Below are positions 6,571 to 34,210 of a stretch of 64,000 nucleotides of DNA, piece by piece. The stretch is from Gammaproteobacteria bacterium. GTDB taxonomy: Bacteria > Pseudomonadota > Gammaproteobacteria > Steroidobacterales > Steroidobacteraceae. The notes under the pieces are model-generated. The model did no database searches. It saw only the letters and a list, made by a program, of their open reading frames with translations, and was not told the origin of the DNA. Location: positions 7,820 to 71,819 of the forward strand of contig JBBINS010000002.1 in assembly GCA_037443765.1 (NCBI GenBank), in the 5' to 3' direction. The number at the start of each line of letters is the position of its first letter. Position 1 is the first letter of the stretch. Made by a program: the position numbers and the translations under genes.

Positions 6571-7941
<1,371 letters not shown>

Positions 7942-13591: not shown

Positions 13592-13625
13592 GGCGGGGTT
13601 CCACTGGCACCGGATGGCAATTGCA

Positions 13626-13640
13626 TGTAGTTTATCTACA
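13626..13640. promoter_or_regulatory. Candidate HexR operator (perfect palindrome TGTAGTTTATCTACA)
   Basis: TGTA-N7-TACA palindrome in the AT-rich divergent edd/zwf region. It matches the form of the published HexR consensus, and hexR is encoded in this cluster. Confidence 0.6.
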
Positions 13641-13743
13641 TTGTATGTCGATGTTCTATCGATGGATGAAATTCACGTTATTAAATACAACCTGTTACAA
13701 ACTTATTAACATAAGATGAAACCGCTGAAGCGAGCCAAGTCTT

Positions 13744-13758
13744 TGTATATTAACTACT
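13744..13758. promoter_or_regulatory. Second, imperfect HexR-like site (TGTATATTAACTACT)
   Basis: TGTA-N7-TACT, one mismatch from a palindrome, directly upstream of the zwf start. Confidence 0.35.
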
Positions 13759-13770
13759 GTGAGTAGGCCC

Positions 13771-15269
<1,499 letters not shown>

Positions 15270-15273
<4 letters not shown>

Positions 15274-16169
15274 GCGCGCGCACCCCGCCGCTCGAGGGCG
15301 AGGACGGCAACGCGCCGGACGCGGAGATCCTGAAGCGGATCCGCGGCTTGCGCGGGTCGCTGTCACCGGCCGAGGCGCGCGTCGCGGACGCGGTACTCGC
15401 CGCACCCGCGTGGGTGCTGCAGAGCACGCTCACCGCGGTGGCCGCCCGCGCCGAAGTCAGCGACCCGACCGTGATCCGCTTTTGCCGCTCGCTCGGCCTC
15501 GACGGCTACCAGACGTTCCGGCTGCGGCTCGCGCACAGCCTCGGCAGCGGCGCCTCGTTCCTGCACCGGGACATCGACCGCGGTGACTCGGCCGCCGACC
15601 TCGCCGCCAAGGTGTTCGAGCGCGCGGGGCGCACGCTGCGCGACGTGTCGGGCCAGCTCTCGCCCGCGCAGCTCGAGGCGGCCATCCGGCTGCTGGCCGG
15701 CGCGCGGCGCATCGAGTTCTACGGGCTCGGCAGCTCCGGCATCGTCGCCGCCGACGCGCGCCACAAGTTCTTCCGGCTGGGCCTGCAGGCCGTCTCCTAC
15801 GCCGACGCGCACGTTCACGGCATGGCGGCGACGATGCTCGCGCGCGGCGACGTGGTGGTCGCGATTTCGAGCACCGGGCGCACGATCGACCTGATCTCGA
15901 GCGTCGAGCTCGCGCTCGAGGCCGGCGCCGACGTCATCGCGATCGCGCCGCCGGGCTCGCCGCTCGCGCAACGCTGCAGCGTACCGCTCGAGCTCGCGGT
16001 CGACGAGGACACCGACATCTACACGCCGATGACCACCCGGCTCGCGCAGCTGACGCTGATCGACGTGCTGTCGATCGGCGTCGCCTTGCGCCTCGGACCG
16101 GAGCTCGCGGCGCGGCTCGAGCGCGCCCGCGACAGCCTGCGCGACAAGCGCCTCAGCAAGGCCGAGTGA
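15270..16169 (+). CDS. hexR: RpiR/HexR family transcriptional regulator (HTH + SIS domain)
   Basis: GTG at 15270 overlaps the zwf stop (GTGA). N-terminal HTH_6-like region ([13 protein letters not shown]...[10 protein letters not shown]) and a SIS domain ([11 protein letters not shown]). Confidence 0.85.
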
Positions 16170-16261
16170 GTCGCACGCGCGCGGCCTGACCGGTCGCGGC
16201 GTGGCGCGTGCGGCGCGGCGGCGGATCGCTTACATTGTCCGGGTTTCCGCATTCCGGACCG

Positions 16262-16948
16262 ATGATGGACGTCGACACCGCCTTACGCACCCGGGGCTCG
16301 ACCCGTGCGTTCCTCTCCCGACCCGTCGCCCGCGCCACCATCGAGGCCGTCCTCGGCCAGGCGCGTTTTGCGCCGAGCGGCAGCAACATCCAGCCGTGGC
16401 AGGTGCACGTCGTCGCCGGCGTGGCGCGCGACGAGATCTGCCGAGCGGTCCGCGAGGCGGCGGCCGGGGCGTCGGGCGGCCCGTTCTGGCCTTACCAGTA
16501 CTACCCCGCGGTGTGGCGGGAGCCGTATCTCGCCAGGCGCCGGGCCTGTGGCTGGGGTCTGTACACGCTGCTCGGCATCGCTCGGGGTGACCGCGCGGCG
16601 ATGCTCGCGCAGGAACGCCGGAACTACGAGTTCTTCGATGCGCCCGTCGGGCTGTTCTTCTTCATCGACGCCGACCTCGGCCCCGGCAGCTGGCTGGACT
16701 ACGGCATGTTCCTGCAGTCGATCATGCTGGCCGCGACGGCGCACGGCCTCGCGACCTGCCCGCAGGCGTCCTGGGCGCCGTACCACGGCGTCGTCCGCGC
16801 GCAGCTGCGGGTCCCGGAGTCGCAGATGCTGATCTGCGGCATGGGCCTCGGCTACGCGGACCCGGCGGCGTCGGTGAACCGCTTCCGCCCGGAACGGCTC
16901 GCGGTCGACGAGTTCACCCATTGGCACGACGCCGCGGTGCGGGCTTGA
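16262..16948 (+). CDS. Nitroreductase family protein
   Basis: RGSTRAFLSRPV and APSGSNIQPW motifs. ATG at 16262. Confidence 0.85.
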   Translation: MMDVDTALRTRGSTRAFLSRPVARATIEAVLGQARFAPSGSNIQPWQVHVVAGVARDEICRAVREAAAGASGGPFWPYQYYPAVWREPYLARRRACGWGLYTLLGIARGDRAAMLAQERRNYEFFDAPVGLFFFIDADLGPGSWLDYGMFLQSIMLAATAHGLATCPQASWAPYHGVVRAQLRVPESQMLICGMGLGYADPAASVNRFRPERLAVDEFTHWHDAAVRA

Positions 16949-17886
16949 GGCGCCTGCCGCCCGCCGGTGGTGGCGGTACGCTCGTCGGCATCGCGCTGAC
17001 CATGATCGGCGCGGCCGGGTTCGCATCGAAGGGCGTCATCGCCAAGTACCTGTACGCGGACGGCTGGGGGGCCGACGCCGTGCTGACGACGAGGTCGCTG
17101 CTCGCGCTGCCGGTCATCGCCGCGTGGGCGCTGTGGGCCGCCGGACCGCGCGCCCTCTTGCGGCCACCGCCGCGCGCCGCGATCGGCGCCGCGATCGCGG
17201 GTTGTCTGTGCTACTTCGTGGGCGCGATGCTCGACTTCCGCGCGCTGACGATGATCGACGCGAGCGTCGAACGCGTACTGCTGTTCTCTTACCCGTCGAT
17301 GGTCGTCGTGCTGTACGCCGGGATCTACCGCGAGTGGCCGGAGCTGCGCTCGCTGGCGGCGCTCGTGATCACCTACGCCGGCATCTTCATGGTCGTCACG
17401 GGACTCGACGCCGGCGTGCTGCGCGGCAACGCCGCCGGCGGCGTGCTGGTGCTCGCCTGCGCGCTGACGTCGGCACTCTATTACCTCGCGAGCGACCGCT
17501 GGACCGGCGCGATCGGCAGCGTCGCCTTCACTTTCTATGCCCTATCCGCGGCCACGGTGTGCCTGCTGATGCACCGCGTGGTGGCCGGCGGGGCCAGCGC
17601 GACGGTGTGGCATGCGCGCGACCTCTGGCTGCTGCTCGCGCTCGTCAGCGTCGCGACCGTCGTGCCGATGCTGGCCATGGCGGAGGGCGTGCGCCGCCTC
17701 GGCGCGCCGCGCGCCTCGGTCGTCGCAACGGTCGGCCCGCCGACGACGATCGTGCTCGGCGCGTGGCTGCTCGACGAGCGGCTGCGGCGCGCGCAATGGC
17801 TCGGCGTGGCGCTGATCGTCGCCGGCATTCTCGCGCTGGAACTCGCGAAGCGCCCCGCCGCTGCCGCCGGCAGCCGCGCTCCCTGA
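16921..17886 (+). CDS. EamA/DMT family transporter
   Basis: About 10 hydrophobic helices arranged as two EamA-like halves. The start is uncertain (TTG at 16921 or 16945). Confidence 0.75.
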   Translation: MARRRGAGLRRLPPAGGGGTLVGIALTMIGAAGFASKGVIAKYLYADGWGADAVLTTRSLLALPVIAAWALWAAGPRALLRPPPRAAIGAAIAGCLCYFVGAMLDFRALTMIDASVERVLLFSYPSMVVVLYAGIYREWPELRSLAALVITYAGIFMVVTGLDAGVLRGNAAGGVLVLACALTSALYYLASDRWTGAIGSVAFTFYALSAATVCLLMHRVVAGGASATVWHARDLWLLLALVSVATVVPMLAMAEGVRRLGAPRASVVATVGPPTTIVLGAWLLDERLRRAQWLGVALIVAGILALELAKRPAAAAGSRAP

Positions 17887-17907
17887 GCCCCGCGGCCGAG
17901 GCCGCGC

Positions 17908-18300
17908 CTACCAGCGACGCGGGTCGGGGTCGTGGTGCAGCGCCGTACCGACGATGTAGCCAAGCGCCGCCAGTGCGCCGACGAGCGCGACGGTGCGGAC
18001 CAGCGGGGTCCGGCCGCGCCGAATCGCGATCGAGCCGAGCACGACGTAGACGACCAGCGCCAACACCTTCGCGGTCAGCCAGGCAGCGACGAACGGATAC
18101 TGCCTCAGGATCAGCGACAGGAGCACGGCGCTCGCCAGCAGCACAGTGTCCACCACGTGCGGCGCGATCCTGAGCAGCGGATGCTGCAGCAGCGCCGAGT
18201 CCGCGAACCGCAGCGCCGCGCGCAGCACGAACAGGCTGATCGACGTAACGACCGCAGCGACGTGCAGCGCCTTCAGCTCGACGTAGAAGCCCGCCAGCAT
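17908..18300 (-). CDS. SirB2-family inner-membrane protein
   Basis: 130 aa, closely resembling enterobacterial SirB2/YchQ (LKALHV..., LRQYPFVAAWLTAKVLALVVYVVLG). Confidence 0.8.
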   Translation of the reverse strand: MLAGFYVELKALHVAAVVTSISLFVLRAALRFADSALLQHPLLRIAPHVVDTVLLASAVLLSLILRQYPFVAAWLTAKVLALVVYVVLGSIAIRRGRTPLVRTVALVGALAALGYIVGTALHHDPDPRRW

Positions 18301-18308: not shown

Positions 18309-19229
18309 TCAGGCCGGGAAGAAGTCGATCGGCTTGGTCGTCGTGATGACCTCCACGTCCTTGTCGTCGAAGTGGAACATCTTGATGCGGGCGACAAGCT
18401 TGCGCTCGAGCTCCTCATCCTTCAGCTCGCTCGACAGGACCTTGCAGTCGGTGACCTCGCCGGTCGGCGCGATCGTCAGCTGCACCACAAGCTTGCCCTG
18501 CAGCTGGGGGTTGTCCCGCAGCGCGCGGTTGTAGAGCGCGTAGATGGCTGCCTTATTTCGGTCGAAGACCATCTCGATCTCTTCGCGGCTGCGCGACGCC
18601 TTGCCGCTAGAACCGGTGCGCTTGGCCTCGGCGTGATCCTTGCGGATGCCGTCGGCGAACGACTGCACGCCCTGCATCGTCGAGTGCCCGTGCAGCGAGC
18701 CCGGTCCGCCGCCGAACCCGGAACTCAGCGCCGCGGTGTTGATGCCGCCGCTGCCTCCCGCCAGGTTCGAGGTGATCAGCGAGCGCTCGGCGCGCGACGG
18801 GCCGTCGACCTTGTCCTTCAGCGGCTTCGCGCTCGCGAGCTGCTCGGTGTTCAGGGCCGCCCGCAGGTCGGCGAGCTCGTCCTTGACCGCGTTCAGCGCC
18901 TTCTGCGCCTTCTTGCGCGCCTGCTCGGTCTTGTCGACGACCGGCGGCGGCACGACCGGCTTCGGCTGCACGATCGGCTTCGGCTCCGGCTTCTTCTCCT
19001 CCACGGGTTTCGGCGGCGGCAGCGGCGGCTGCAGCACGAGCTTGACGACCTCCTCCGGCAGCGGGCGGGCGATCGGGCGCTCGGGCGTCGGCAGCAACTG
19101 GGTGCCGACGACGATGATCAACCACAGGACGAGGCCGATCGTGAGCAGCCGCTTAAAGTGGCGCTCCTCGGCGTCGTTCGGTGTCCAGGGTAGTTCGAAT
19201 ACCCGGTAATTGGCTGCAAGCACTGTCAT
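18309..19229 (-). CDS. TonB-like energy-transducer protein with AgmX/PglI-type C-terminal domain
   Basis: N-terminal membrane anchor, a Pro/Lys-rich spacer (PPLPPPKPVEEKKPEPKPIVQPKPVVPPP) and a C-terminal block (AAIYALYNRALRDNPQLQGKLVVQLTIAPTGEVTDCKV...FHF). Confidence 0.75.
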   Translation of the reverse strand: MTVLAANYRVFELPWTPNDAEERHFKRLLTIGLVLWLIIVVGTQLLPTPERPIARPLPEEVVKLVLQPPLPPPKPVEEKKPEPKPIVQPKPVVPPPVVDKTEQARKKAQKALNAVKDELADLRAALNTEQLASAKPLKDKVDGPSRAERSLITSNLAGGSGGINTAALSSGFGGGPGSLHGHSTMQGVQSFADGIRKDHAEAKRTGSSGKASRSREEIEMVFDRNKAAIYALYNRALRDNPQLQGKLVVQLTIAPTGEVTDCKVLSSELKDEELERKLVARIKMFHFDDKDVEVITTTKPIDFFPA

Positions 19230-19250
19230 CGGGGGCTCGCTCGGCGATTC

Positions 19251-19766
19251 TTAGCCAGGATTCGGGCCACGGTAGGCCCGCTCTTTCTCGATGACCGCGA
19301 GCGACATCTTGCCGATGTCCGCTGCGGTCGCCGCCATCATGATCTTCTTCAGCAGGCTGTACGGCAGACCCTTGTCCGCCATGACCGTGACCTCGCGCGC
19401 GGTCGGGTCGTTCGGTGCCATCAGCGTGCGCTTCTGCGTCTCGCTCTTGAGGCTGGCCTGCAGCGACTCGCGTGCTGCGGCCACGTCGCCCTCGATGTCC
19501 GCGACCGTCGCGGTCGCCATGCCGTTCACGAAGATCGTGTCGCGCGTGACCATCAGCACCGTCGACTCGTGCGGCCGCGACTCGGAAATCGACTGCGGAA
19601 TCGAGATGTTCTTGGTGTTCGGCAGGATCTCGTAGTCCGCCGTGTGCACCAGCATGTACACCACGAGGATCACGAGCATGTCGATCATCGGGACGAGCGC
19701 GGGCATGCCGTGGCCGCGGTGGTGGCCACCGGGCCTGCGGTTGCGCTTCAGCCGTGAGCCAATCAT
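19251..19766 (-). CDS. exbD: ExbD/TolR family protein
   Basis: 171 aa with the single TM segment LVPMIDMLVILVVYML, typical of ExbD. Overlaps the upstream gene's stop by 4 nt. Confidence 0.85.
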   Translation of the reverse strand: MIGSRLKRNRRPGGHHRGHGMPALVPMIDMLVILVVYMLVHTADYEILPNTKNISIPQSISESRPHESTVLMVTRDTIFVNGMATATVADIEGDVAAARESLQASLKSETQKRTLMAPNDPTAREVTVMADKGLPYSLLKKIMMAATAADIGKMSLAVIEKERAYRGPNPG

Positions 19767-20272
19767 GTCGGCGCGTCTCCGAGCGAGATCTGCGGGAACA
19801 ACTCCCCGCGGGCCGGCTGGCCGTCGAGGGTACCTTCGTAGGACTTCACGGCGTCCATCGTCGCGATGATCGTGTCGTACGGGATGTTCTGCTCGAGCAG
19901 CACCGTCGCCGACTTCATCTCGGGAAATTTCGCCTTGACGCGCGTCAGGAACGAGTTCAGGCCGTCGAAGTCGTAGCCGTCCGCCGTGTTCGGAAACGGC
20001 TGCAACGGGCCGGAATTCTTGTCCTGCACGACCAGGCCGTCCTTGCGCACCACGATCTCGAGCACGAGCCCCTCGGGAAGCGAAAGGGGCTCGGAGCTCT
20101 GTGCCGGCAGGTTCATCTCGACGATGTGCGTCTTCGAGAATACTGCCGTGAAGATCAGGAAGAACAGCAGGATCGTGAAGATGTCGAGCATCGGAACGAT
20201 GTTGATATCGTTCCGACCCTTGTATCGCGCATGGTTGCGCGATTGCCGGCGGGCGATCGAGGATCCGCTCAT
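19763..20272 (-). CDS. exbD: ExbD/TolR family protein (second copy)
   Basis: 169 aa with the NIVPMLDIFTILLFFLIF anchor. 4-nt overlap with exbB. Confidence 0.85.
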   Translation of the reverse strand: MSGSSIARRQSRNHARYKGRNDINIVPMLDIFTILLFFLIFTAVFSKTHIVEMNLPAQSSEPLSLPEGLVLEIVVRKDGLVVQDKNSGPLQPFPNTADGYDFDGLNSFLTRVKAKFPEMKSATVLLEQNIPYDTIIATMDAVKSYEGTLDGQPARGELFPQISLGDAPT

Positions 20273-20979
20273 GCGCGCGCCCCGCGCACCTCGCCGGTCC
20301 GCGCGGCCGCGCCCGCGGCCGCCGGCGCCTCAGCGCCCGGCGTGCGCTGCTGACGCTCGGTGATCGCGTTCAGGAACTTGACGCTCGCGACCTCGAGGCT
20401 GTCGACGATGTTCGTCGTCTTGGTCTCGAGATAGAGGTGCGACAGCAGCAGCGTGATCGCAACGAGCAGGCCGAGCGCGGTGTTGTTCATCGCGACCGAG
20501 ATGCTGGCGGACAGCAGGCTCGCCTTCTCGGCCGGGTTCGCCTGGGCGACCGCGGCGAAGGCGTTGATGAGGCCGAGAACGGTGCCGAACAGGCCCATCA
20601 GCATGCCGATGTTGGCGAGCGCGGCGAGGTAGTGGGTGCGCCGTTCGAGGTGCGGGATGACCTCGACCAGGCTTTCCTCCATCGCCTTCTCGATGTCCTC
20701 GCGACGGCGAGCCGTCGTGATCCGGCTCAAGCCGTAGCGCATGACCTGCGCGAGCGCGGTGTCCGAATCGGACACGGCGTTGGTCGCCTGCTTGAAGTTG
20801 CCCGCCTCGAACAGCGGCTGCAGCTGGTCCCACAGGCGCTTGTTGCCCGTGCCGACCTTCATCAGGTAGGCGAAGCGCTCGATGGCGATGACGAGGCCGA
20901 TCGCCCAGATCAGGGCGATGGGGTACAGGAAGAAACCTCCCTGCTTGAAGAAGTTCACAATTACGTCGTAGGCATGCAT
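20269..20979 (-). CDS. exbB: MotA/TolQ/ExbB proton-channel protein
   Basis: 236 aa with three TM segments and the ANIGMLMGLFGTVLGLINAF motif. Confidence 0.9.
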   Translation of the reverse strand: MHAYDVIVNFFKQGGFFLYPIALIWAIGLVIAIERFAYLMKVGTGNKRLWDQLQPLFEAGNFKQATNAVSDSDTALAQVMRYGLSRITTARRREDIEKAMEESLVEVIPHLERRTHYLAALANIGMLMGLFGTVLGLINAFAAVAQANPAEKASLLSASISVAMNNTALGLLVAITLLLSHLYLETKTTNIVDSLEVASVKFLNAITERQQRTPGAEAPAAAGAAARTGEVRGARA

Positions 20980-21060
20980 CTCCGCTGCTCCGTTCGATTC
21001 CGCGAGTTATGCCGGCACGGCCGGTCCATTTCACTCAAGTTATGTTACGAATACCGTGGC

Positions 21061-21549
21061 TTACTTCTCAGGCTGCGGCCCGGCCGCCCGACCTGTGATG
21101 TGCGTCTCGCCCCGCGCCCGATCCGGCGCCAGCGCATTGAAATAATCGACCTCGCGCCGGAAGACCTCCCGGTCCACCGGCGCCAGCGCCTCGTCGACCA
21201 GGCTGTTGACCGGCCGGCCGGCCAGGTCGCCGATGTCCGACCGCTTCCAGGGCACGATCACCATGACCTTCGGCAGCTCGCGGTTGCCGGTGATCTGGGT
21301 CGTCTCGAGTTCGAGCCGGTCCATCGCCTTGGCGGTCTTCTCGGCGGTGCCCGCGTCGCCCTTGGCGGCGGACTTGCGGGGCCGCGTGGCGGCTGCGCGC
21401 GGCGCGGCGACCGCCGGCTCGGCGTCCCGGACAGCCGCGGAAGCCGCCCGGGCGGCCGCTTGCGGCTCAGCCGGCGGCGCGTCCGCCGCCCGGGCGGCGC
21501 CGAGCGCCACCAGGGCGCCGAGCAAGGCGATCAGCGGACTCGTCTTCAT
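21061..21549 (-). CDS. Secreted hypothetical protein
   Basis: Signal peptide (MKTSPLIALLGALVALGAARA), an Ala/Pro-rich linker and a conserved-looking C-terminal ~80 aa. ATGA overlap with the upstream TPR gene. Confidence 0.6.
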   Translation of the reverse strand: MKTSPLIALLGALVALGAARAADAPPAEPQAAARAASAAVRDAEPAVAAPRAAATRPRKSAAKGDAGTAEKTAKAMDRLELETTQITGNRELPKVMVIVPWKRSDIGDLAGRPVNSLVDEALAPVDREVFRREVDYFNALAPDRARGETHITGRAAGPQPEK

Positions 21550-24500
21550 TTGGCCTCCGCGCGTGCGCTTTTTTGCCCGGCGCCGAGGCGCTGCCGGATC
21601 TCGGCAATCCAGGCCGACATGACCTTGTCCTCGCCACCGACCAGCGCCAGCGCCCGCTCGTACTCACCCAGTGCCTCGGCGGGCTTCTGCACGTACAGGT
21701 CGAGCAGCACGCCGAGGTTACGGTGCGCACGGGCATCGCTGGCGTCCAGCTCCAGCGAGTGGCGGTAGGACTGCTCCGCCTCGGCAAACTTGCCGAGCTG
21801 CCGGTAGACGATACCGAGCTGCGCGGCGGCCGTCGCGCTCGCCGGGTGGCGCTTCAGCGCCTCGCCGAGCGCGGCCTCGGCTTCCGGCCACTGCTGCGCT
21901 CGCGACAGCAGGATGCCGTGATTGAGCGGCGGCCCTGCGAGGGCCGGCGCCTGGGTCGCGAGCGCGACGAACTCCGTGTCGGCCTGAGCGCCGCCACTTT
22001 CGGCGGCCGCGACCGCCTCCTGGAAGCGGACCGCGATCGGCAGCGGCACCGCGGGCGCGACCGGTTGCGGCGCCGGCGCGGCGCCCTTGCCGTTCGCCGG
22101 CGGCGGGCTGGCCGGCGGCGGTGGCATGGCCCCCGCGGCGGCGTCGATGACGAGATCCTCGTTCTCCTCGGTCTTGCCGAAGCGCGCCGGCTTGAGCTTG
22201 GCGAGGGCCGCATAGCTCGCGCGAACCGGCTCGTTGTAGAGCCCCTGCGCTGCGCGCGCGGTGTTGACGAGGTGGATGTCGATCGCCTTTTCCTCGAACG
22301 GATAGGCCTGTTCCTCGAGCAACAGGTCGTACTGCTCGAGCTCCTCCCCGGCGAGACTCTTCGGGCGCTCCGACTTCAGCAGGTCCACGCCCAGCTGGCG
22401 GTACAGCTCGGCCATCTCGAAGGTCGCCGCGGTCGAGACCTCGGCGATCGCGTAGGCGTCCGCCGCCTCGAAGGCCTTGAGCGCACGCTGCATCGCCGCA
22501 CGCTTGGCTTCCAGCGACTTCTTGAGCGGCAGCACGAGGCGCACGGCATTGAACGCGTCGCGCGTCGGCTGCGCGAGCTCGAGGGAGGCTTTTGCGGCGA
22601 GGTAGCGGCTGCGGTCGGTGCGCGCGGCACCGGCGCCCTGGTCCGCCTTGATGATGTCGTCGAGCAACGCGGCGCGACGGGGCGCGTCGCCGCGCTGCTG
22701 AGCGAGGTCGGCGAGCTTCTGCCGCGCCTCCAGCGCCGCCTCGAAGGGCTGCGGGTAGCGCTTGACGTAGCTCTCCCACGTGGCGACCGTCCTCGCGACG
22801 TCGCCGGACTTCTCGTACAGGGCCGCCGCTTGCGACAGCGCTTCGCGCTGCACGTCGGCGTTGCCTCCGGGCGCGGAAGCGATGCGCTCGAACTCGACGG
22901 CCGCCGGGCCCGGCCGGCCCGCCTCGACGTAGGCGACGGCGAGCTTGCGGGTGACCTCGGGCTGGAGCTCGCTGGCCGGGAAGTTGCGCCGGAAACCCTC
23001 GAGCACCTCGATCGCCTTCGGCCAGTCCTTCATCCCGATCAGCAGCGCCGCGGCGTCATAGTCCGCGGTGGCGCGGATCTTGGCGAGCGGCGCCAGCTGC
23101 GCGACGCGCAGGAAGTCGCCGACCGCGCCGGCATCGTCGCCGGCCGCCTTGCGCGCCTCGCCCTGCTTGTACACGGAGGCCGCGACGCGTTCGTCGATCG
23201 CCGGGCGTTGCGGGTCGTTCGCCGCGAGCAGCGACTGCACCTGCAGGTACGCCCCTTCGGACTTGTCGAACTGGCCGAGCTCGAACTGGCCGTTGGCGAT
23301 CACCGTCCAGACGGTCCGCTGCTTCTCGACGTCGACCGGCGGCTGGCGCGCCAGCACGATGTCGGCAACGTCGATCGCCTTGGCGTAGTCCTTGAGGTCG
23401 TAGTACTCGCGTGCCGTGCGCACCAGCACCGGCGCGCTCTCCGGGTGGGCCTGGAACGTCGTCGCGAAGCGCAGACCGCTCTCGAGGCCCTGGCGGTGCC
23501 AGGCGCTCTTGGCCTCGCCCTGGAGCGCCGCCTCCTCCTTCTCGTAGGACACGAGCGCGGCGTAGCCGGCGGTCGCGGACTTGTCGTTCGGCGGGTAGCC
23601 GTATGCGGCGTGCTCGTACTCGAGCGCGGCATCGTGAAACTGGTGGCTCTCGAACAGCGTGTCGGCGAGCAGGTAATTGGTGGTCGCGGCTTCCTTGTCG
23701 TCCGGGAACGACTTCAGGTATTCGCGGTACCAGCGCGCCGCCTCCTGGTAGTCCGCCGGCTGTTTGGTCGCCTGCGCCTGCGCGTGGTAGTAGGAAGCGA
23801 GGTCCTTGACGTTCGTCTTGAGCTCGCGGACGACGAGCGGCGCGTCGGCCGGCTGGCGGTGCGCCCAGAACGACGACCCCAGGCGATACTGCTCGACGTA
23901 CTCGCGCTTGCCGTCGAGCACGAGCGAGGCGAAGCCGCCGCGCTTGTAGGCATCGATGGCCTGCATCTGCAGCAACGGCGCCCGCTCGTGATCCGGGTCG
24001 CGCTTGGCGAACGCACGGTAGGCGTTCGCGCCGTCGGTCCAGCGCTCCTTGCTGACGTACAGGTCGCCGAGCGTGCCGTACAGCAGGTAGGCGTACGGCT
24101 TCGCGCCGTGGCGCGCGAGGAAGCTATCGACACCCTTCGCCTCGTCCTCGAACGAGAATGTGATGGCGCACACCCGCAGCGTGTCCTCGACCAGCTCGCG
24201 CTGCGGACGCGTGAAGCCGTCGATGTCCCGTTCCTTGCCTTTGGCGTCGACGAGCTTGAGGTCGAGGAGCTTCGCGAACGAGTCGAGGGCGCCCTCGGAC
24301 TCACCGCGCTTGAACTGCGCCCAGCCGTGCTTGTACAGGCTCTGCTCGTAGAACTCCGACTTCGGCCCGAAGGCAATCACGCGGGCGTAGGCGCCCTCGG
24401 CATCCGCCCAGCGCTTGTCCATGAACATGATTTCGCCGCGCCGGAACTGCGCCTCGTCGACGTAGCGGCTCGCCGGATACCGCTTGACCAGCTGGTCGAG

Positions 24501-24941
24501 CGACGCGAGCGCCCGGTCGCCCTGCTGGTTGGCCTCGTAGGCGCGCGCCAGCTGATAGAGGACGGCGTCGTTGCGCTCGTAGTCCGGATAGGCCTTGAGG
24601 AGCCTCGTGTAGAGCACGATCGCGTCCGCCGTGTCGAGGGGCGAACCCTCGGCGAGCTCCTTCTCGATGCGGTTGAGCTCGCCGGCCTCGAGCTTGAGGT
24701 CGCCGAGCCGGCGCATCGCCTCCGCCCGCAGTGCAGCATCGCCGCGCTCGAGGTTCAGGAATTCCTGGTAGTTCTGCCGCGCCTTGTCGGAGTTCGCGTC
24801 GCTCGGCCCGTCCGGCTGGACGTCGACCTGACGGTCCTTGAGGTCGCCGATCGTCGGCTGCTTCTTAGGCGCCGCGCCGGCGACGCCGGCGGCCAGCGCC
24901 GCCGCGCAGACGAAGGCCAGCAGGGAGGCGGCCTTGCTCAT
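21546..24941 (-). CDS. Large secreted TPR-repeat protein (1131 aa)
   Basis: Signal peptide followed by many TPR-like A-x-x-x-Y/F helical pairs along the whole length. ATGA overlap with the upstream gene. Confidence 0.85.
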   Translation of the reverse strand: MSKAASLLAFVCAAALAAGVAGAAPKKQPTIGDLKDRQVDVQPDGPSDANSDKARQNYQEFLNLERGDAALRAEAMRRLGDLKLEAGELNRIEKELAEGSPLDTADAIVLYTRLLKAYPDYERNDAVLYQLARAYEANQQGDRALASLDQLVKRYPASRYVDEAQFRRGEIMFMDKRWADAEGAYARVIAFGPKSEFYEQSLYKHGWAQFKRGESEGALDSFAKLLDLKLVDAKGKERDIDGFTRPQRELVEDTLRVCAITFSFEDEAKGVDSFLARHGAKPYAYLLYGTLGDLYVSKERWTDGANAYRAFAKRDPDHERAPLLQMQAIDAYKRGGFASLVLDGKREYVEQYRLGSSFWAHRQPADAPLVVRELKTNVKDLASYYHAQAQATKQPADYQEAARWYREYLKSFPDDKEAATTNYLLADTLFESHQFHDAALEYEHAAYGYPPNDKSATAGYAALVSYEKEEAALQGEAKSAWHRQGLESGLRFATTFQAHPESAPVLVRTAREYYDLKDYAKAIDVADIVLARQPPVDVEKQRTVWTVIANGQFELGQFDKSEGAYLQVQSLLAANDPQRPAIDERVAASVYKQGEARKAAGDDAGAVGDFLRVAQLAPLAKIRATADYDAAALLIGMKDWPKAIEVLEGFRRNFPASELQPEVTRKLAVAYVEAGRPGPAAVEFERIASAPGGNADVQREALSQAAALYEKSGDVARTVATWESYVKRYPQPFEAALEARQKLADLAQQRGDAPRRAALLDDIIKADQGAGAARTDRSRYLAAKASLELAQPTRDAFNAVRLVLPLKKSLEAKRAAMQRALKAFEAADAYAIAEVSTAATFEMAELYRQLGVDLLKSERPKSLAGEELEQYDLLLEEQAYPFEEKAIDIHLVNTARAAQGLYNEPVRASYAALAKLKPARFGKTEENEDLVIDAAAGAMPPPPASPPPANGKGAAPAPQPVAPAVPLPIAVRFQEAVAAAESGGAQADTEFVALATQAPALAGPPLNHGILLSRAQQWPEAEAALGEALKRHPASATAAAQLGIVYRQLGKFAEAEQSYRHSLELDASDARAHRNLGVLLDLYVQKPAEALGEYERALALVGGEDKVMSAWIAEIRQRLGAGQKSARAEAK

Positions 24942-26914
24942 CGGGCGCCGTCCGGGGGTGGTGGCATCGCCGGCGCGGCGGGCGCCGGGCGCTCGCTGCG
25001 CTTGGCGTCGGTGTCCGAGGCGCGATCATAGATCGTCGCGAGCGAATAGCGCGCCTGCAGCATGTACGTGGAGATGCGTTCCTTCTGGGACTCCAGCTCG
25101 CGGACGGCGATGTCGGCGAGGTAGTCGGCCTGGGCACGCTGCAGCGCGGCAAGGCGGTCGCGCGCGGCCTCGATCCGCGGACGCAGGGCCGCGATGCGGC
25201 CGGCGAACTCGCCGTTTCGGTCCGGCACGGCCTGCTTGGCCTCCTGCACCAGCGACCAGCGCTTCTCGGTCTCGCGCAGCGCCTGCGAGACCTCGCGCAC
25301 GCCCTTGCGGACGGCCCAGGCGCGCGCCTTGAAGCCGTCGTTCATCTCCCAGTACAGCACGCCGCGGATCAAGCGCAGCTTCTCGCGCGCATCGTCGAGG
25401 TCCGGATCGGCGCCGGCGGTCGCGAGGACGGCCTCCATCTGCTCGACCTGCGACCAGAGCTCGCGCTCGCGGGGCGTGCCGAGCGCCGCCACGTCGCCGT
25501 TGTTCTCCGCGCTGACGACCCGCGACTCGATCTCGGTGCGGCGGCGCTGAAGCTCCTCGAGATCGACGCCGTCGAGCTTGGCGAGCACGGCCGGCAGCCG
25601 CGTGGCGTAGCGCTCGCGGCGCGTCGCGAGCATGTCGTCGAACGCCTCGACGCTCGTCGACCACGCATCGAGGTTGCGCTCCATGTAGCGCAGCATCCGG
25701 AAATTCTTCAAGCCTTCCTGGAAGTCGTTCTGCGCCAGCAGGTGGTAGAGGTAGCGCGACTCCGGCGCGTCCGGCAGCGATGATAGCTGCCAGAACCAGC
25801 CCAGCTGGTTGCGCGACTCGTTCTTCACGATCGTCTCGAGCATGCCGCCGCGCCGAATCGCCGCGATCGACTCGTCGAGGCGGCCGGTCTCGGTACCGAA
25901 CTCCCGGATCGCCGCCTCGTAGTATTCGGCCGCCTGCCGGTTCGCGTTCAGCTTCGCGTAGGCGTACGGAACCGCGAGGTAGCTCTCCTGTACTGCCGAG
26001 TCGAGCATGTTGCGCCCGTGCAGCTCGAGCCAGGGGACCAGCGCCTCGCGGTACTGCTGCTCGTCGCTCGCAGCCCAGCCGACGCCGAGCAGCGCCTTGG
26101 TCGACAGCGGCCCGTCGAGCCGGACGCGCTCCAGCACCGGCCGCGCCTCGGCGGGCCGCTTGGCCTGCAGCAGCGCGTAGCCGAGCGCCACGTTGGCCTT
26201 GTCGCGCAACGCGTCGAGTTCGGCGTTGGTGCGCTCCAGCCGGCCGATCTCGTCGAGGAGGCGCGAGCCGTTCTCGAGCTGGCCGCTGCGGACGAACGCG
26301 ACGCCGAGATTGAACTTGGCGTACGACTGCCAGACGACCGGGCCCTTCCAGTTGTCGAGCACGGCGATCGCCGCCGGGTACTTGCCCTGATAGAGCAGTG
26401 CCTGCGCGAGCAGCATATGGCGCTCGGCGTCCATCGCCGGCGTCAGCCCGGCCTTGCCCGACGCGGCCAGCGCGTCGGCGGCCTTCTCGTAGTAGCCGCG
26501 CTGGTACCAGACCTTGCCGAGGAAGAAGCGGGCGCGATCGCGCACTGGTTGCGGCACGTTCTTGCGGTCGAGCACCTCGGCGAAGATCTGGCCGGCCTCG
26601 CGGTGCTGGCCGAGCGACAGGTACAGACCGCCGAGCAGCAGCTGGGCGTCCTCTTGGTGGTGCGACAGTCGACCGTTCTGCTGCGCCGCGGTCAGCCGGG
26701 TCAGGGCGTCGAAGTAGTCGTCCTGGTAGAAGTAGAAGAGGACGTCGCCGTAATACAGGTCACGGACCTTGACGGGCGGCAACGCACCCGGCGTCGCGGC
26801 CTTCTTCGGCGCAGCCGCTCCCGCCCCCGGCGCCACGGCCAGGGCGAGCGCCAGTGCGCACACCCGCAGGCGTGCGCCGCAGCGGGTCGCGATGCCGACT
26901 CGGCTCACTCCCAC
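24938..26914 (-). CDS. Secreted TPR plus coiled-coil protein (658 aa)
   Basis: Signal-like N-terminus, TPR-like N-terminal half and a long heptad-like C-terminal half. GTG start at 26914; the start is uncertain. Confidence 0.8.
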   Translation of the reverse strand: MGVSRVGIATRCGARLRVCALALALAVAPGAGAAAPKKAATPGALPPVKVRDLYYGDVLFYFYQDDYFDALTRLTAAQQNGRLSHHQEDAQLLLGGLYLSLGQHREAGQIFAEVLDRKNVPQPVRDRARFFLGKVWYQRGYYEKAADALAASGKAGLTPAMDAERHMLLAQALLYQGKYPAAIAVLDNWKGPVVWQSYAKFNLGVAFVRSGQLENGSRLLDEIGRLERTNAELDALRDKANVALGYALLQAKRPAEARPVLERVRLDGPLSTKALLGVGWAASDEQQYREALVPWLELHGRNMLDSAVQESYLAVPYAYAKLNANRQAAEYYEAAIREFGTETGRLDESIAAIRRGGMLETIVKNESRNQLGWFWQLSSLPDAPESRYLYHLLAQNDFQEGLKNFRMLRYMERNLDAWSTSVEAFDDMLATRRERYATRLPAVLAKLDGVDLEELQRRRTEIESRVVSAENNGDVAALGTPRERELWSQVEQMEAVLATAGADPDLDDAREKLRLIRGVLYWEMNDGFKARAWAVRKGVREVSQALRETEKRWSLVQEAKQAVPDRNGEFAGRIAALRPRIEAARDRLAALQRAQADYLADIAVRELESQKERISTYMLQARYSLATIYDRASDTDAKRSERPAPAAPAMPPPPDGAR

Positions 26915-27510
26915 TCCTTGACCTTGAACTCCGGCTGCTGCGCGCTCTGCCGGTCGGAAATCTTGAGCTCGAGATACTTCGCGCCGACGCCCTTCTCGAA
27001 GTTCAGGTTCGCACCACGCTTGTAGTCGCGCTCGTGCGGCCCCTTGCCCGTGAAGAAGGCGACCAGCTCGTGCTTGCCGGTCTTCAGGTTGCCGATGAAG
27101 ACGCGGTGGACGCCGCCGCGATTCAGGGCCTCGACCTCACGGTCCGTGTACAGATAGTTCGCTACTACCTTGTTGTCGAGCCTGATCTGCACCGAATCCA
27201 GTTCGAAGAAGGTGCCGACGTCGAGCGACAGGAACACCGCGACCTGGGTGTTCGCGGGGAACAGCAGTTCTTCCTCGAGCATGAACAGGTCGCGATTGAG
27301 GTCGAGGACCTCCTTCTTGAGACCCTGGACCTCGCCGTCGAGGCTCTTGAAGTCGCCACCGCTGGCGGCCGGTGCCGCCGGAGCGCCTGCCGGGACTGCG
27401 GCCGGGGCCTCGTCGGCGGGCGGCGTGGCGCCGGCCGGCGCGGCGAGCGCGAGCAGCGCGCAGGCCGCGGCCGAGCGGATGAACAGTGCGAGAGATTTGG
27501 TGGTTACCAT
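26905..27510 (-). CDS. Secreted hypothetical protein (coiled-coil plus beta-rich domain)
   Basis: ATG at 27510 gives MVTTKSLALFIRSAAACALLALAAPAGA (signal peptide). Overlaps the downstream gene start by 10 nt. Confidence 0.65.
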   Translation of the reverse strand: MVTTKSLALFIRSAAACALLALAAPAGATPPADEAPAAVPAGAPAAPAASGGDFKSLDGEVQGLKKEVLDLNRDLFMLEEELLFPANTQVAVFLSLDVGTFFELDSVQIRLDNKVVANYLYTDREVEALNRGGVHRVFIGNLKTGKHELVAFFTGKGPHERDYKRGANLNFEKGVGAKYLELKISDRQSAQQPEFKVKEWE

Positions 27511-27677: not shown

Positions 27678-28253
27678 CTATTCGTCGAGAAGCTGCCGGA
27701 CCTCGGCGACGAGGTCGGCGTCGCCGGCGGCATCCAGCTCGCCGTGCGCGTAGCGCACGACGCCGGCGCGGTCGATCAGCAGCGTCAGCGGCACGTCCGG
27801 CACCGAGAAGCGACGGCCGAGGACCTTGTCCGCGTCGACGCCGTTGCGGAACTTGGCGCCGACCGCGCGCGCCAGCTCGGTCGCGCGGCTCGGGTCGTCG
27901 TCGAGGCTGATGCCGACGACGACCAGGCCGGCCTGCGCGTAAGTCGCATCGAGCTTCGCAAGACGCTCAAGGTACGTCCGGCACGACCCGCACCAGCTGG
28001 TCCAGAAGCCGATCGCCACGACCTCGCCGCGCCGTTCGGACAGGCGGAAATTGCGGCCGGTACCGGAGAACAGGCGCTGCACGATCTCGGGCGCCGGCTT
28101 GCCGATCAGCGGGTGATGCGCAGCGGGATCCGCCGCGCTCGAGGTCGCGACGACGCCGATGAGCGCGAGTGCGAGCACGAGGCACGCAGCACTGCGCCGG
28201 GACCGGGCATTCAACAGAGACAGCCGCCGCACCACCGTCGCCACGAACTCCAT
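27678..28253 (-). CDS. TlpA-like periplasmic thiol:disulfide oxidoreductase
   Basis: Signal/anchor plus a WCGSC redox motif in a thioredoxin-fold context (VVAIGFWTSWCGSCRTYL). Confidence 0.85.
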   Translation of the reverse strand: MEFVATVVRRLSLLNARSRRSAACLVLALALIGVVATSSAADPAAHHPLIGKPAPEIVQRLFSGTGRNFRLSERRGEVVAIGFWTSWCGSCRTYLERLAKLDATYAQAGLVVVGISLDDDPSRATELARAVGAKFRNGVDADKVLGRRFSVPDVPLTLLIDRAGVVRYAHGELDAAGDADLVAEVRQLLDE

Positions 28254-28587: not shown

Positions 28588-29952
28588 TCACGCGCCGTCG
28601 GCTCGCTCGCCGTTGCGATGCAGGCGTTCGAGGAGCCCGCGCAGCGCGCTGCGGGCCTGTGCCGCGGGCAGGAGGCCCTGCTCGGCGACGATCCGCGTCA
28701 GCTCGTCGAGTGACCGCCGCCCGTCGACGAGCGCGAGCAGCACGGCCTGGATGCGGCTGGCGTCCGCCGCGAGCGCCAGCGCGTCGGAGCGCGGCACGGG
28801 CACGGAACCGTCTCGCAACCACGGCGGCGCGGTGGACTCCTCCGGCTCGCGCGGTCCGCGGCGACGCTTGTCGGCCGCAAACAGCGCCACCGTCTCGACG
28901 CGGCCGTGCCGGCTCGCGGGTGAGCGCATGTAGGGCAGCGTGGCATCGCGCTGCGAGGCGACCTCGAAGCCCGCCGCGGTCACGATGTCGCGCACCTCCT
29001 CGGGCCCGTACCGGAGACCCGGGCGGCGCCACGGGAACGCGAGCGACCCGAAGTTGACCCAGCGCCCCCCCGGCACGAGCAACCGGTTGATCGCGAGCGC
29101 GACCGATTCAAAATCGAGGTCGACGATGTCGATGAGCCACGGCGTGACGACCGCGTCGAAGCTCTGCGCCGCAAACGGCGCGCGCCAGGCGTCGGCAAAC
29201 ACGAGCTCGAGGCCCGGCCGTGCGGGCGCCGGCGCCGCCAGCTCGCGCCGGATGGCTGCATCGGCGCCCGTGCGCGGGGCGATCGGGAACTCGTACAGCT
29301 CGACCCGGCCGCCACGGACCACACGCTCGGCGACGAGCAGCAGCAGCGGGTTGATGTCGAGCGCGACGGTCAGCGACTGCGCACCGTGTTGGTGCAGGTC
29401 GTACGCGAGCCGTCCGCCGCCGGCGCCGAGCACGAGCAAGCGCCCGCCTCGCCCGGCGAGCGCCGCCGCCACCTCCGCGTGCGAGGCTTCGTTCTCCTCG
29501 GTGCCCCAGCACCAGTCGCGGTGCACGTTGGCGTAGTAGGAATGCAGGTCCTGGCTGAGGGGCAGGCGCTCGCCGAACGCGAGCGGCGTCGCGCGCGGCA
29601 TCGGCAGCGGCGCGAGCATCAGCGGCTGCAGCAGGAGCCGCACCAGGCGTGCCTGCTCGCGGTAGGCGTCGCGGAGCGCGACCAGCCGGCTTCGGGTGCT
29701 GTCCCGGGGGGCAATCACCAGGTCGGCCTCCGCGGCGCGCTCGGCGGCCGCAAACTCCTCGAGATACAGCGTCAGGCGATTGCGCCATTCCCCGAGGGCG
29801 AGTTCGGGGTCCGCGAACAGCCACGGCAGGCCGTCGAGCCGCGGGTACTCGACGCGGCAGCCGCGGCACGCAAAACCGTCGGTCGCCGCCACCAGCGGCG
29901 CGCGCCGGCAGCGCGGGCACTGCAGCGAGTCGAGGAAACCGGGATCCGCCAT
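28588..29952 (-). CDS. SAM-dependent methyltransferase with N-terminal zinc ribbon and C-terminal winged-helix-like tail
   Basis: CPRC...CRGC Trm112-like ribbon and LVLGAGGGRLAYDL SAM motif I. I preferred the ATG at 29952 over the TTG at 29970. Confidence 0.8.
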   Translation of the reverse strand: MADPGFLDSLQCPRCRRAPLVAATDGFACRGCRVEYPRLDGLPWLFADPELALGEWRNRLTLYLEEFAAAERAAEADLVIAPRDSTRSRLVALRDAYREQARLVRLLLQPLMLAPLPMPRATPLAFGERLPLSQDLHSYYANVHRDWCWGTEENEASHAEVAAALAGRGGRLLVLGAGGGRLAYDLHQHGAQSLTVALDINPLLLLVAERVVRGGRVELYEFPIAPRTGADAAIRRELAAPAPARPGLELVFADAWRAPFAAQSFDAVVTPWLIDIVDLDFESVALAINRLLVPGGRWVNFGSLAFPWRRPGLRYGPEEVRDIVTAAGFEVASQRDATLPYMRSPASRHGRVETVALFAADKRRRGPREPEESTAPPWLRDGSVPVPRSDALALAADASRIQAVLLALVDGRRSLDELTRIVAEQGLLPAAQARSALRGLLERLHRNGERADGA

Positions 29953-30032
29953 GGGCACAGCATGCCGCAAGGAGCCACCGGACGCAGCCCGGCCCGCCCC
30001 GGACGGGCGGGCCGCCGGCGGTCGGCGTCGCG

Positions 30033-31646
30033 TCAGCCGCCGATCTTGCCGTTGACGATCGGGGCGAAGGCCGTCAGCGCGTCGAGCGCCGAGCCCGTAC
30101 CGAGCGCCTGGTCCGGGAAGACCTGCGAGAACATGGCCTGCTGGCCGTGCAGCGCCATGTAGTTGAGGAGCACCGTCTGCACGAGCAGCAGCACGTTGTT
30201 CGCCGCGGGACTTGCGGACGCGTCGACGTTGCCGCCCGGGTTCGTGAATGCCCCGATCTGCTGGTGACGGGCCGCCGCCAGCCCGCCGGCGCCGTCGAGC
30301 AGCTGCGGCCGTCCGCCGGGGTTATAGACGAGGAAGTAGGTCGCGGCGACGCCGCCGTTGTCGCTCGTCCACATGAACTTGCCGCGGCCGTCGACCGAGG
30401 TGTCGACCTGGCCACCGGCGGAGATGCCGCCGTCGCTGAACACGTAGACCATCAGCGGCTTCTGCATGCGCGCCGCATATTCGAGGCAGGCGCCGATGCA
30501 GCGGCCGGCACGCAGGTCGCGCAGCTCGCCGGTCGCCCGGCCCTGTCCGTGGTAGTCGTAGCCGCCCATGCTGATCGTGCCGGCCCCCGCGTAGCCGTTG
30601 ACGACCATCTTCATGATCGCGGCCGTCTTCTGGAACTCCGGATCGCCCTGATACTCGGCCTGGCTGAAGATACCCGAGCCGCGGGTCGCGCTCTGGTCGA
30701 CGATCTGCGGATCGAGGTCGGGGTTGAGCGCCGACGGGCTGGAGAAGTTCTCGGCGAGGTACGCCGACTTCACGTAGTTGCAGTTGGCCGCGGACTTCAC
30801 GGCGGCGTCGGCCGCGAGCTGAGTCGAGACGTTGGAGAACTTCTGGCCGCTGATGCGCGACATCGACTCGAGCACCGAGACCGCGTCGGCCGGGTTCGTG
30901 AAGAGCTGGCCGAGCACGCCGGTGTCGACCAGGCCGGTGACGTTGCTCGCCTGGGTCACGACGGTGGGCGTCAGCGCCGGATTGACCATCGACAGCGGCG
31001 CCATCGAGTTGCCGCCGGACTGGCTCGCCTGCGAGCCGATCAGCGTCAGCAGCTCGCCCTTGGCGCCGGCCATCGCGATGCCGTACATCGGATTGTGCGG
31101 GTTCGTGTTCGTGTCGTTGTTCGACAGCGCCGGGATCACGACGCCGTTGGTGGCCGCCTGCGTCGAGGGCGCCGTCCGTTCGAGAATGCCGCGGACGTGC
31201 GCGCTGTCGGAGTGGAACAGCAGGCCGAGCCGGTTCTCGATAAAGCTGCCCGTCGCGGAGGAGTTCGGCACCATGCTGCCGGGCAGACCCATCGCGCCGT
31301 ACGCCGCCGTCGGCAGGAAGTCGGTCTGACCGCCGGCGCCGCCCACGAGCACGTTGGAGCCGGCGATGTTGCCGCCGCCCGCGAGATCGAAGCAGATGAA
31401 CGGGATCTTGCCGGCACCGCCCGTGATGCCGCAGGCGACCTTCTGCGCCAGGATGTCCGGATCGAGCGCCATCGCCCGCCCCGGATTGAGGAGCAGCCCG
31501 AGCGCCGTCGGCGCGATGACCGTGGCGGAGCCCGTCATGAAGCCCTGCGCGATGAAGTCGCGCCGCGTGACGGGACGCTTGTGGGACCCGTGGCGGATCG
31601 GCTCGTCCAGCTCGAGGGTCCGCGGCGGCTTGTTCCGGATGATCAT
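30033..31646 (-). CDS. Tat-exported DUF1501/DUF1552-like protein
   Basis: ATG at 31646 with GAGG upstream. Twin-arginine motif TRRDFIAQG, a GGGN loop near the N-terminus and an MGGYDYHG motif. Confidence 0.7.
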   Translation of the reverse strand: MIIRNKPPRTLELDEPIRHGSHKRPVTRRDFIAQGFMTGSATVIAPTALGLLLNPGRAMALDPDILAQKVACGITGGAGKIPFICFDLAGGGNIAGSNVLVGGAGGQTDFLPTAAYGAMGLPGSMVPNSSATGSFIENRLGLLFHSDSAHVRGILERTAPSTQAATNGVVIPALSNNDTNTNPHNPMYGIAMAGAKGELLTLIGSQASQSGGNSMAPLSMVNPALTPTVVTQASNVTGLVDTGVLGQLFTNPADAVSVLESMSRISGQKFSNVSTQLAADAAVKSAANCNYVKSAYLAENFSSPSALNPDLDPQIVDQSATRGSGIFSQAEYQGDPEFQKTAAIMKMVVNGYAGAGTISMGGYDYHGQGRATGELRDLRAGRCIGACLEYAARMQKPLMVYVFSDGGISAGGQVDTSVDGRGKFMWTSDNGGVAATYFLVYNPGGRPQLLDGAGGLAAARHQQIGAFTNPGGNVDASASPAANNVLLLVQTVLLNYMALHGQQAMFSQVFPDQALGTGSALDALTAFAPIVNGKIGG

Positions 31647-31668
31647 GATGATTGCCTCGATAGTTCCG

Positions 31669-34197: not shown

Positions 34198-34210
34198 GTT
34201 CGATACTCCC

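Follow-up and report, generated by a model that had tools for sequence, protein, structure and literature searches.

The gliding-motility (Agl-Glt) and spore-coat (Agl-Nfs) machines of Myxococcus xanthus were built on the base of a smaller gene cluster. Luciano et al. described this core complex, their Group B gene cluster, in 2011 as gltC, gltD, gltE, gltG, aglR, aglQ and aglS plus one extra gene, which has no Myxococcus homologue (PMC3169522). The core complex is found as a single cluster in one betaproteobacterium, several gammaproteobacteria, Geobacter and Fibrobacter; in non-gliders its function is unknown, and its genes are insufficient for motility (PMC3169522). In an AlphaFold model the motor is AglR5-AglQ-AglS, the GltG helix lies on AglR, GltG wraps GltD, and GltE sits on GltD's C-terminal domain (PMC11761067). 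Here we compare with these systems an operon of eight genes, designated g1 to g8, from a metagenome-assembled genome of an uncultured soil gammaproteobacterium of the Steroidobacteraceae. The operon lies in a 64,000-nucleotide stretch of contig JBBINS010000002.1 (assembly GCA_037443765.1), referred to as the window, which has a G+C content of about 70%. Shared with Agl-Glt and Agl-Nfs of M. xanthus are a TolQ-like channel protein with two unlike TolR-like subunits, a TonB-like transducer with an AgmX/PglI-type end, and large periplasmic tetratricopeptide repeat (TPR) proteins.

Correspondence with the published core complex

A profile search with distant relatives of g1 led to a locus in Saccharophagus degradans (L165) that encodes, in order, ApbE, a g1-like protein of 177 residues, and proteins of 624, 957, 222, 99, 220 (MotA_ExbB), 183 (ExbD), 178 (ExbD) and 325 residues. 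The series 624/957/222/-/220/183/178/325, its dash standing for Sde_3564, equals the sizes of Sde_3567 to Sde_3560 in Table S3 of the 2011 study, where Sde_3560-3567 are assigned to homologues of GltC, GltD, GltE, AglR, AglQ, AglS and GltG (PMC3169522). By BLASTP, all eight window genes pair one-to-one with this locus, and the best match is always the corresponding gene. The g1 protein matches the 177-residue protein (56%, E 5e-60), and g2 matches the 624-residue GltC homologue over 598 residues (30% identity, E 2e-72). Residues 7-926 of g3 match the 957-residue GltD homologue (35% identity, E 0), and residues 958-1122 the 222-residue GltE homologue (30% identity, E 9e-20). The 99-residue protein encoded between the GltE and AglR homologues is matched by g4 (34%, E 5e-10). 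For g5 the match to the AglR homologue reaches 206 bits (49% identity, E 8e-71). The best match of g6 is the AglQ homologue (32%, E 2.5e-22), with the AglS homologue at E 7e-9; g7 matches the AglS homologue (34%, E 6e-30), and g8 the 325-residue GltG homologue (37%, E 7e-35).

This one-to-one correspondence places the window operon in the published family, and its genes are orthologous to those of the core cluster. Judged by these alignments, g2 is GltC-like, g3 GltD-GltE-like, g5 AglR-like, g6 and g7 AglQ/AglS-like, and g8 GltG-like. The same genes stand in the same order in S. degradans Sde_3560-3567, in Methylibium petroleiphilum Mpe_A1224-1231 and in the window, and in S. degradans, as in the window, a g1 gene lies upstream of gltC. 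A first-pass annotation of the window had proposed an Agl-Glt core cluster, and the eight-gene match to Sde_3560-3567 supports it; GltF and GltJ, which it had also named, are not part of the published core. We conclude that the operon is very probably a complete copy of the Agl-Glt core complex, of the kind published in 2011.

Conservation of the cluster across genomes

The closest relatives of the cluster are found in metagenome-assembled genomes of Steroidobacteraceae (Gammaproteobacteria), with g1 identity of up to 99-100%. A scan with a single motif, made on one genome per species, identified at least 587 loci with a g1 relative; the motif was built from 14 g1 sequences, and its matches are close Steroidobacteraceae relatives only. 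Two sets of loci were compared in detail, namely the best 80 genome loci and 80 metagenome contigs around g1 relatives that are 40-50% identical. The comparison of synteny that the first-pass annotation had called for shows the order g1 to g8 kept in every sufficiently long locus of both sets. Among the best 80 genome loci, 67-68 contain complete clusters, and profile searches recovered the order in every long locus of the metagenome set. The same eight-gene order across loci means that the arrangement is not due to chance. The core-complex family is very widespread.

One clade has a different arrangement. Three loci (L141 at positions 8072-16346, L154 and L159) carry genes for thioredoxin, DUF3570, g1, GltC-, GltD- and GltE-like proteins and the small protein X, the counterpart of g4. 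In the 4 kb that follow, no motor or GltG-like gene was found, so the periplasmic module can be encoded apart from the motor.

Motor and transducer

The window had been said to encode one ExbB/TolQ protein and two ExbD/TolR proteins, and Pfam agrees, with MotA_ExbB in g5 (92 bits) and ExbD in g6 and g7 (57 and 53 bits). Compared with its match to the AglR homologue, g5 is distant from both canonical channel proteins. It scores 46.6 bits against each of E. coli ExbB and TolQ (26-27% identity), and 35 and 34 bits against the solved ExbB and TolQ structures. The NCBIfam equivalog models give 59.5 bits for TolQ (TIGR02796, cut-off 221) and 43.2 bits for ExbB (TIGR02797, cut-off 206). For g6 and g7, the TolR model TIGR02801 gives 44 and 30 bits against a cut-off of 127, and the ExbD models give 22-26 bits against cut-offs of 123-216. 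A firm grouping of the motor with canonical Ton or Tol paralogues, which would have spoken against a core cluster, is thus not seen; g5 is equally far from ExbB and TolQ, and the scores stay below the equivalog cut-offs.

Residues expected of a proton-driven motor are conserved. Among 96 relatives of g5, T133 is present in all 96, T167 in 95 (with a gap in the remaining one) and P20 in 92. Thr133 and Thr167 align with the channel threonines of ExbB, T148 and T181. Both ExbD copies have the transmembrane Asp whose presence was to be checked, as D30 in g6 and D29 in g7. All 87 ungapped relatives of g7 retain Asp29. At the position of g6 Asp30 (window 20183-20185), 58 of 94 relatives have Asp and 35 have Asn, the residue found in S. 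degradans. From this alignment, many of these motors may work with just one protonatable Asp.

In the transducer g8, 27 cytoplasmic residues precede a membrane helix (residues 28-46); a Pro-rich spacer and a low-complexity linker then lead to the AgmX/PglI C-terminal domain. The first-pass annotation had preferred AgmX/PglI to TonB_C for this domain, and the scores bear this out: NF033768 reaches 67.8 bits (cut-off 40), against 20.9 for Pfam TonB_C (cut-off 24.6). A second model of the TonB C-terminal domain, TIGR01352, is borderline at 27.4 bits (cut-off 27.1). The NCBI model for GltG matches the C-terminus of g8 at model positions 553-629 of 650, and the GltJ model matches the same residues. 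As a single sequence, g8 has no match in PDB. A profile of its C-terminal domain, made from 28 relatives, finds almost only TonB C-terminal domains there, at a best E of 0.002; among them is 6sly, the reported Foldseek match of the GltJ domain (PMC11761067). By these profile matches the g8 domain is a distant TonB-type domain of the AgmX/PglI subtype.

The N-terminal part of g8 differs from the better-known transducers. The cytoplasmic part of Myxococcus GltG spans about 330 residues and includes two FHA domains (PMC11761067), compared with 27 residues in g8, in which Pfam finds no FHA domain. The membrane helix of g8 contains no His; there is one nearby, H24, but 66 of 88 relatives have Arg at that position. 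A SHLS/His motif couples TonB and TolA to their motors (PMC12204202). That study describes operons that share with the window a TPR protein, one channel gene, an unlike TolR pair and then a membrane-anchored transducer of unknown function. Their transducers, however, have a von Willebrand A domain at the end and retain the SHLS/His motif, whereas g8 has the AgmX/PglI end and no such His (PMC12204202).

TPR proteins and the GltD-GltE fusion

Pfam matches many TPR families in g2 and g3, among them TPR_16 and ANAPC3 in g2. Both proteins had been suggested to be of GltD/GltE type. This is correct for the 1131-residue g3, a fusion of GltD and GltE, but not for the 658-residue g2, which corresponds to GltC. 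In S. degradans, GltD and GltE are separate proteins, whereas the window has a single fused protein without the GltE lipobox. The two halves can also be matched to separate proteins in locus L082: there, a 938-residue protein is 47% identical end to end with g3 residues 1-931, and the next gene encodes a 220-residue TPR lipoprotein that matches the last 200 residues of g3 (37%, E 1e-23). In 72 loci, GltD and GltE are fused in 26, as they are in the window, and split in 46. A survey of the split forms shows that split GltE genes usually start with a lipobox; the fused form has a Pro/Ala linker in place of the signal peptide and lipobox of split GltE. A recurrent fusion of GltE to the C-terminus of GltD agrees with the contact between GltE and the GltD C-terminal domain predicted by AlphaFold (PMC11761067).

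The N-terminal repeats of g3 also resemble those of a Tol-Pal protein. TIGR02795 (tol-pal YbgF/CpoB) scores 105.2 bits in residues 143-225, above its cut-off of 90.1, and the g3 family profile likewise matches E. coli CpoB. The likeness is at the level of the repeats only, g3 having 1131 residues and CpoB 263.

The additional proteins g1 and g4

The head gene g1 belongs to a family of 1215 clusters at 50% identity in a large protein library. It has no Pfam or NCBIfam family match, and tblastn against plasmids gave no match. An AlphaFold2 model built on a 117-sequence alignment, with a pLDDT (predicted local distance difference test) score of 78.6 overall and above 90 in the beta domain, predicts a signal peptide, a disordered Ala/Pro stretch, a 30-residue helix (residues 54-83) and an eight-strand beta-sandwich (residues 89-200). 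A model from 37 close sequences was of low quality, with a pLDDT of 61.5, and yielded nothing informative in a fold search. Foldseek with g1 against PDB gave no fold match at E<=0.001, returning generic beta-sandwiches only.

A g1 gene lies upstream of the GltC-like gene in all of the more than 160 loci examined, S. degradans included. It falls outside the locus-tag ranges of the homologue table of 2011 (Table S3, PMC3169522), and so seems not to have been counted then as a component. A look-up of cluster members for ten distant g1 relatives returned almost only metagenome-assembled genomes. NCBI names members of the g1 family (P0429, P0182 and P0238, for example) "AraC family transcriptional regulator", but a DNA-binding domain is absent from them; the label is wrong, an annotation error that has propagated.

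The small protein g4 has no Pfam or NCBIfam match. In an alignment of 102 sequences, a low-complexity N-terminus is followed by a strongly conserved, hydrophobic core, GN[RQ]ELPKVLYIVPWK, and then by a conserved C-terminal segment. From gaps in the locus tags of the 2011 paper, g4 is likely to be the extra gene of the core complex, for which a Myxococcus homologue is lacking (PMC3169522). Both g1 and g4 apparently have no homologues in Myxococcus; the paper says so for the one extra gene. The position of g4, after the GltE part, is that of gltF in Myxococcus, and its sequence layout is reminiscent of GltF in the published model, in which a GltF strand pairs with the GltG domain and the C-terminal helix of GltF plugs GltC (PMC11761067).

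Operon layout and coordinates

Coordinates of the operon, its domains and the adjacent thioredoxin gene are given in Table 1. As the first-pass annotation had it, the eight genes are co-directional, being minus-strand open reading frames (ORFs) at 18309-27510, and all five of the stop/start overlaps that it listed are present. Four of these overlaps measure 4 nucleotides. The g1/g2 overlap is 10 nucleotides if g2 starts from the GTG at 26914; the public gene call for g2 begins 6 nucleotides downstream, at the alternative start 26908, and leaves an overlap of 4. The remaining gaps are 81 nucleotides (g4-g5) and 21 nucleotides (g7-g8). Membrane and signal segments were taken from a hydropathy scan rather than from SignalP. 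It shows a single N-terminal hydrophobic segment in each of g1, g2, g3 and g4; g5 has three membrane segments, and g6, g7 and g8 have one apiece. No lipobox was found in any of g1-g8.

Table 1. Features of the g1-g8 operon and the adjacent thioredoxin gene (positions are those of the window).
Feature	Position	Strand	Description
g1	26905-27510	-	201 residues from ATG; secreted, long helix and beta-sandwich; first gene of the cluster
g2	24938-26914	-	658 residues; GltC-like periplasmic TPR protein
g3	21546-24941	-	1131 residues; fusion of GltD-like and GltE-like parts
g3, residues 1-931	22149-24941	-	GltD-like TPR scaffold; N-terminal repeats resemble CpoB/YbgF
g3, residues 932-957	22071-22148	-	Pro/Ala-rich linker
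g3, residues 958-1131	21546-22070	-	GltE-like TPR module
g4	21061-21549	-	162 residues; small secreted protein X
g5	20269-20979	-	236 residues; AglR-like proton-channel subunit of the TolQ/ExbB family
g6	19763-20272	-	169 residues; AglQ-like TolR/ExbD paralogue
g7	19251-19766	-	171 residues; AglS-like TolR/ExbD paralogue
g8	18309-19229	-	306 residues; GltG-like TonB-type transducer
g8, residues 214-306	18312-18590	-	AgmX/PglI C-terminal domain (NF033768)
TlpA/ResA-like periplasmic thioredoxin	27678-28253	-	CxxC motif; Redoxin and AhpC-TSA match

One flank of the operon contains the housekeeping genes ppc, edd and zwf, and the other end is closed by a convergent gene for an EamA transporter. 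An ORF at 17535-18074, 3' of g8, was considered as a ninth gene and rejected: it has no family match, its translation looks out-of-frame, and the real gene there is the plus-strand EamA transporter. A scan for promoters and terminators found no promoter-like site, and terminator-like sites near chance expectation. A reading of the operon as a Zorya-like defence system was likewise rejected, PADLOC models matching none of g1-g8.

Genomic neighbourhood

No gene for a TonB-dependent receptor was found among the large ORFs scanned in the window, in agreement with the first-pass annotation. A check of 82 related loci, which grouped the unexplained large flanking ORFs into 18 clusters and scanned ten representatives, likewise found none within 10 kb of the cluster. 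The clusters in these loci thus show no linkage to receptor genes.

A gene for a TlpA-like thioredoxin lies 167 nucleotides upstream of g1, and 80 of 81 related loci have such a gene immediately upstream. Of the 120 loci with enough upstream DNA, 118 encode ApbE, a thioredoxin-like protein or DUF3570, or more than one of these, within 3.5 kb upstream of g1, a count that spans both locus sets, between which g1 identity is 40-50%. In S. degradans ApbE is directly upstream (L165, 8702-9712), and in L141 thioredoxin and DUF3570 adjoin the cluster (8072-9960). These three proteins make up a recognised extracytosolic flavinylation/thiol unit of unknown function (Meheust et al. 2021, PMC8238504). The cluster might work together with this redox module; DUF3570, which is likely to be a flavoprotein of the outer membrane, could for instance be the missing outer-membrane partner. 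Persistent proximity favours the idea, but several observations make it an improbable one. The adjacent member of the module differs between lineages. The window copy of the ApbE/DUF3570/thioredoxin module is at 40097-43040, with its DUF3570, which carries one TGAS motif, and a second thioredoxin about 13 kb away on the opposite strand. The proteins g1-g8 contain no [ST]GA[ST] flavinylation motif and almost no periplasmic cysteine, which makes a direct substrate relation with ApbE or thioredoxin unlikely. Adjacency could, moreover, be inherited gene order without a functional link. From gene proximity, we treat a link between the core complex and the redox module as a lead only.

Other neighbours are less constant. 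In L165, the core cluster and ApbE lie immediately 3' of a complete type II secretion (gsp) operon (1-8560) on the same strand. Just upstream of the window operon is a block of genes for secreted proteins with CxxCH motifs, at 30033-35431 on the minus strand and 35626-38634 on the plus strand. Its members are a 563-residue protein with an RRDFI Tat-like signal, an 842-residue LamG protein, a 406-residue protein and a divergently encoded 1002-residue protein (HZS_alpha, PD40). Each is present in 57-62 of the 80 Steroidobacteraceae loci, and all are absent from distant lineages. A gene for a 460-residue methyltransferase-domain protein (28588-29970, minus strand) lies between this block and the thioredoxin gene; only 10 related loci carry it, which suggests a lineage-specific insertion. 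At the far end of the window, positions 58001-64000, G+C content drops from about 0.70 to 0.58-0.63, in a region with a GCV_T aminomethyltransferase-like gene and a genuine AraC-type regulator. This region could be acquired DNA.

Discussion

The following mechanism is proposed for the products of the operon, on the strength of homology with the ExbBD and TolQR structures and with the AglR5-AglQ-AglS model (PMC11761067). In the inner membrane, g5 would form a pentameric proton channel, inside which one g6 and one g7 would make a heterodimer whose transmembrane Asp residues carry protons. Proton flow would be turned into conformational work and passed to g8 through its membrane helix, which would lie against the outer side of the channel. 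The Pro-rich disordered stretch of g8 would cross the peptidoglycan to a scaffold of g3 (GltD-GltE) and g2 (GltC-like), where the TonB-like domain would dock, probably onto a beta-strand that a partner contributes for pairing; the likeliest donor of that strand is g4. The g1 protein would be an obligatory extra periplasmic subunit. As a whole, the machine would apply proton-motive force to a periplasmic or outer-membrane process. The 5:1:1 stoichiometry, all contacts between the proteins, the direction of force and any cargo are inferred.

Several points weigh against assignment of the operon to the Agl-Glt core complex. The link to AglRQS and GltDEG of M. xanthus rests on the phylogeny of 2011 and on NCBI models of the Myxococcus families. 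Full-length models score far below their cut-offs (on g8, GltG 46.6 against 650 and GltJ 28.7 against 450; for GltE, 36.2 against 225), and the window proteins are on this measure distant relatives rather than equivalogs. The operon has no outer-membrane component, and the fused form also dispenses with the lipid anchor of GltE. The membrane helix of g8 lacks the conserved His through which TonB and TolA are coupled to their motors. Finally, literature searches on the published locus tags and on gammaproteobacterial core complexes found no experiment for any non-deltaproteobacterial cluster.

The operon might be a paralogue of Tol-Pal for envelope maintenance, its motor and transducer pulling on a CpoB-like TPR scaffold and coordinating the outer membrane or peptidoglycan. 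Tol-Pal shares with it a proton-driven motor of the 5:2-type family, a transducer that crosses the membrane once and has a long spacer in the periplasm, and TPR repeats of the CpoB kind. In layout (channel, TolR-like proteins, transducer, TPR protein) the operon resembles TolQRA-CpoB. The YbgF/CpoB model exceeds its cut-off on the N-terminal repeats of g3, and the best NCBIfam matches are TolQ for g5 and TolR for both g6 and g7. Those TolQ and TolR scores are, however, far under the equivalog cut-offs. No TolB or Pal gene is present in the operon or its flanks, the TolR-like genes are two and unlike rather than one, and the transducer lacks the membrane-helix His and ends in a domain of the AgmX/PglI type; the g8 profile has no match to E. 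coli TolA at E<=10. We consider such a role unlikely. It concerns the task of the machine, not its identity, and is compatible with membership in the core complex.

An ordinary extra Ton system, energising TonB-dependent receptors encoded elsewhere and using the TPR proteins as accessories, is a much poorer account. Ton (ExbB-ExbD-TonB) has in common with the operon the MotA_ExbB and ExbD domains that Pfam reports in g5 and in g6 and g7, and a Pro-rich transducer, to which g8 adds a distantly TonB-like C-terminal domain that just reaches the TIGR01352 cut-off and whose profile finds TonB structures. On the other side, g5 is equidistant from ExbB and TolQ and falls short of the ExbB equivalog model by a wide interval, the AgmX/PglI model beats that TonB C-terminal model by 40 bits, the g8 helix lacks the conserved His, and receptor genes are missing from the window and from beside the 82 related loci. 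The motor genes are co-transcribed with the TPR scaffold genes; they are coupled in translation to the genes of four periplasmic proteins, and distant lineages keep this order. Taken together, these observations make an extra Ton system very unlikely.

A working gliding-motility machine in a gammaproteobacterium, for which homology to the Agl and Glt proteins might speak, can be dismissed almost outright: g8 has no cytoplasmic FHA domains, the GltJ equivalog model is far below its cut-off, Pfam and NCBIfam scans of large ORFs show no other candidate for the apparatus (with no dedicated GltA/B/H/K or CglB models in these libraries), and the core genes are insufficient for motility according to Luciano et al. 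(PMC3169522). Near the operon no candidate was found for GltA/B/H, GltK, CglB, GltI, GltJ or AglZ, nor in related loci for GltA/B/H/K and CglB, for which the libraries contain no dedicated models. With no candidate outer-membrane barrels, adhesin or cytoplasmic platform, the machine would not move the cell.

Assignment to the core complex thus remains the preferred reading of the operon. Bacterial focal-adhesion gliding evolved from the core complex, whose role in non-gliders has been an open question since 2011. Clusters of this type have been published before, and the window alone does not settle the function of the complex. What is added here is g1 as the invariant head of the cluster, the recurrent GltD-GltE fusion and the persistent redox neighbourhood. 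The fusion provides independent support for a contact so far predicted by AlphaFold only. At its most speculative, and with little probability attached, the core might be larger than described, with g1 as an obligatory ninth component, and might couple mechanically to a flavinylated, probably outer-membrane, redox protein; if true, the core complex would thereby gain both a first candidate cargo and the outer-membrane partner that it lacks. The neighbourhood of ApbE, thioredoxin and DUF3570 suggests where such a partner may be sought, and these leads can be tested in cultivable carriers such as Saccharophagus degradans and Cellvibrio japonicus.

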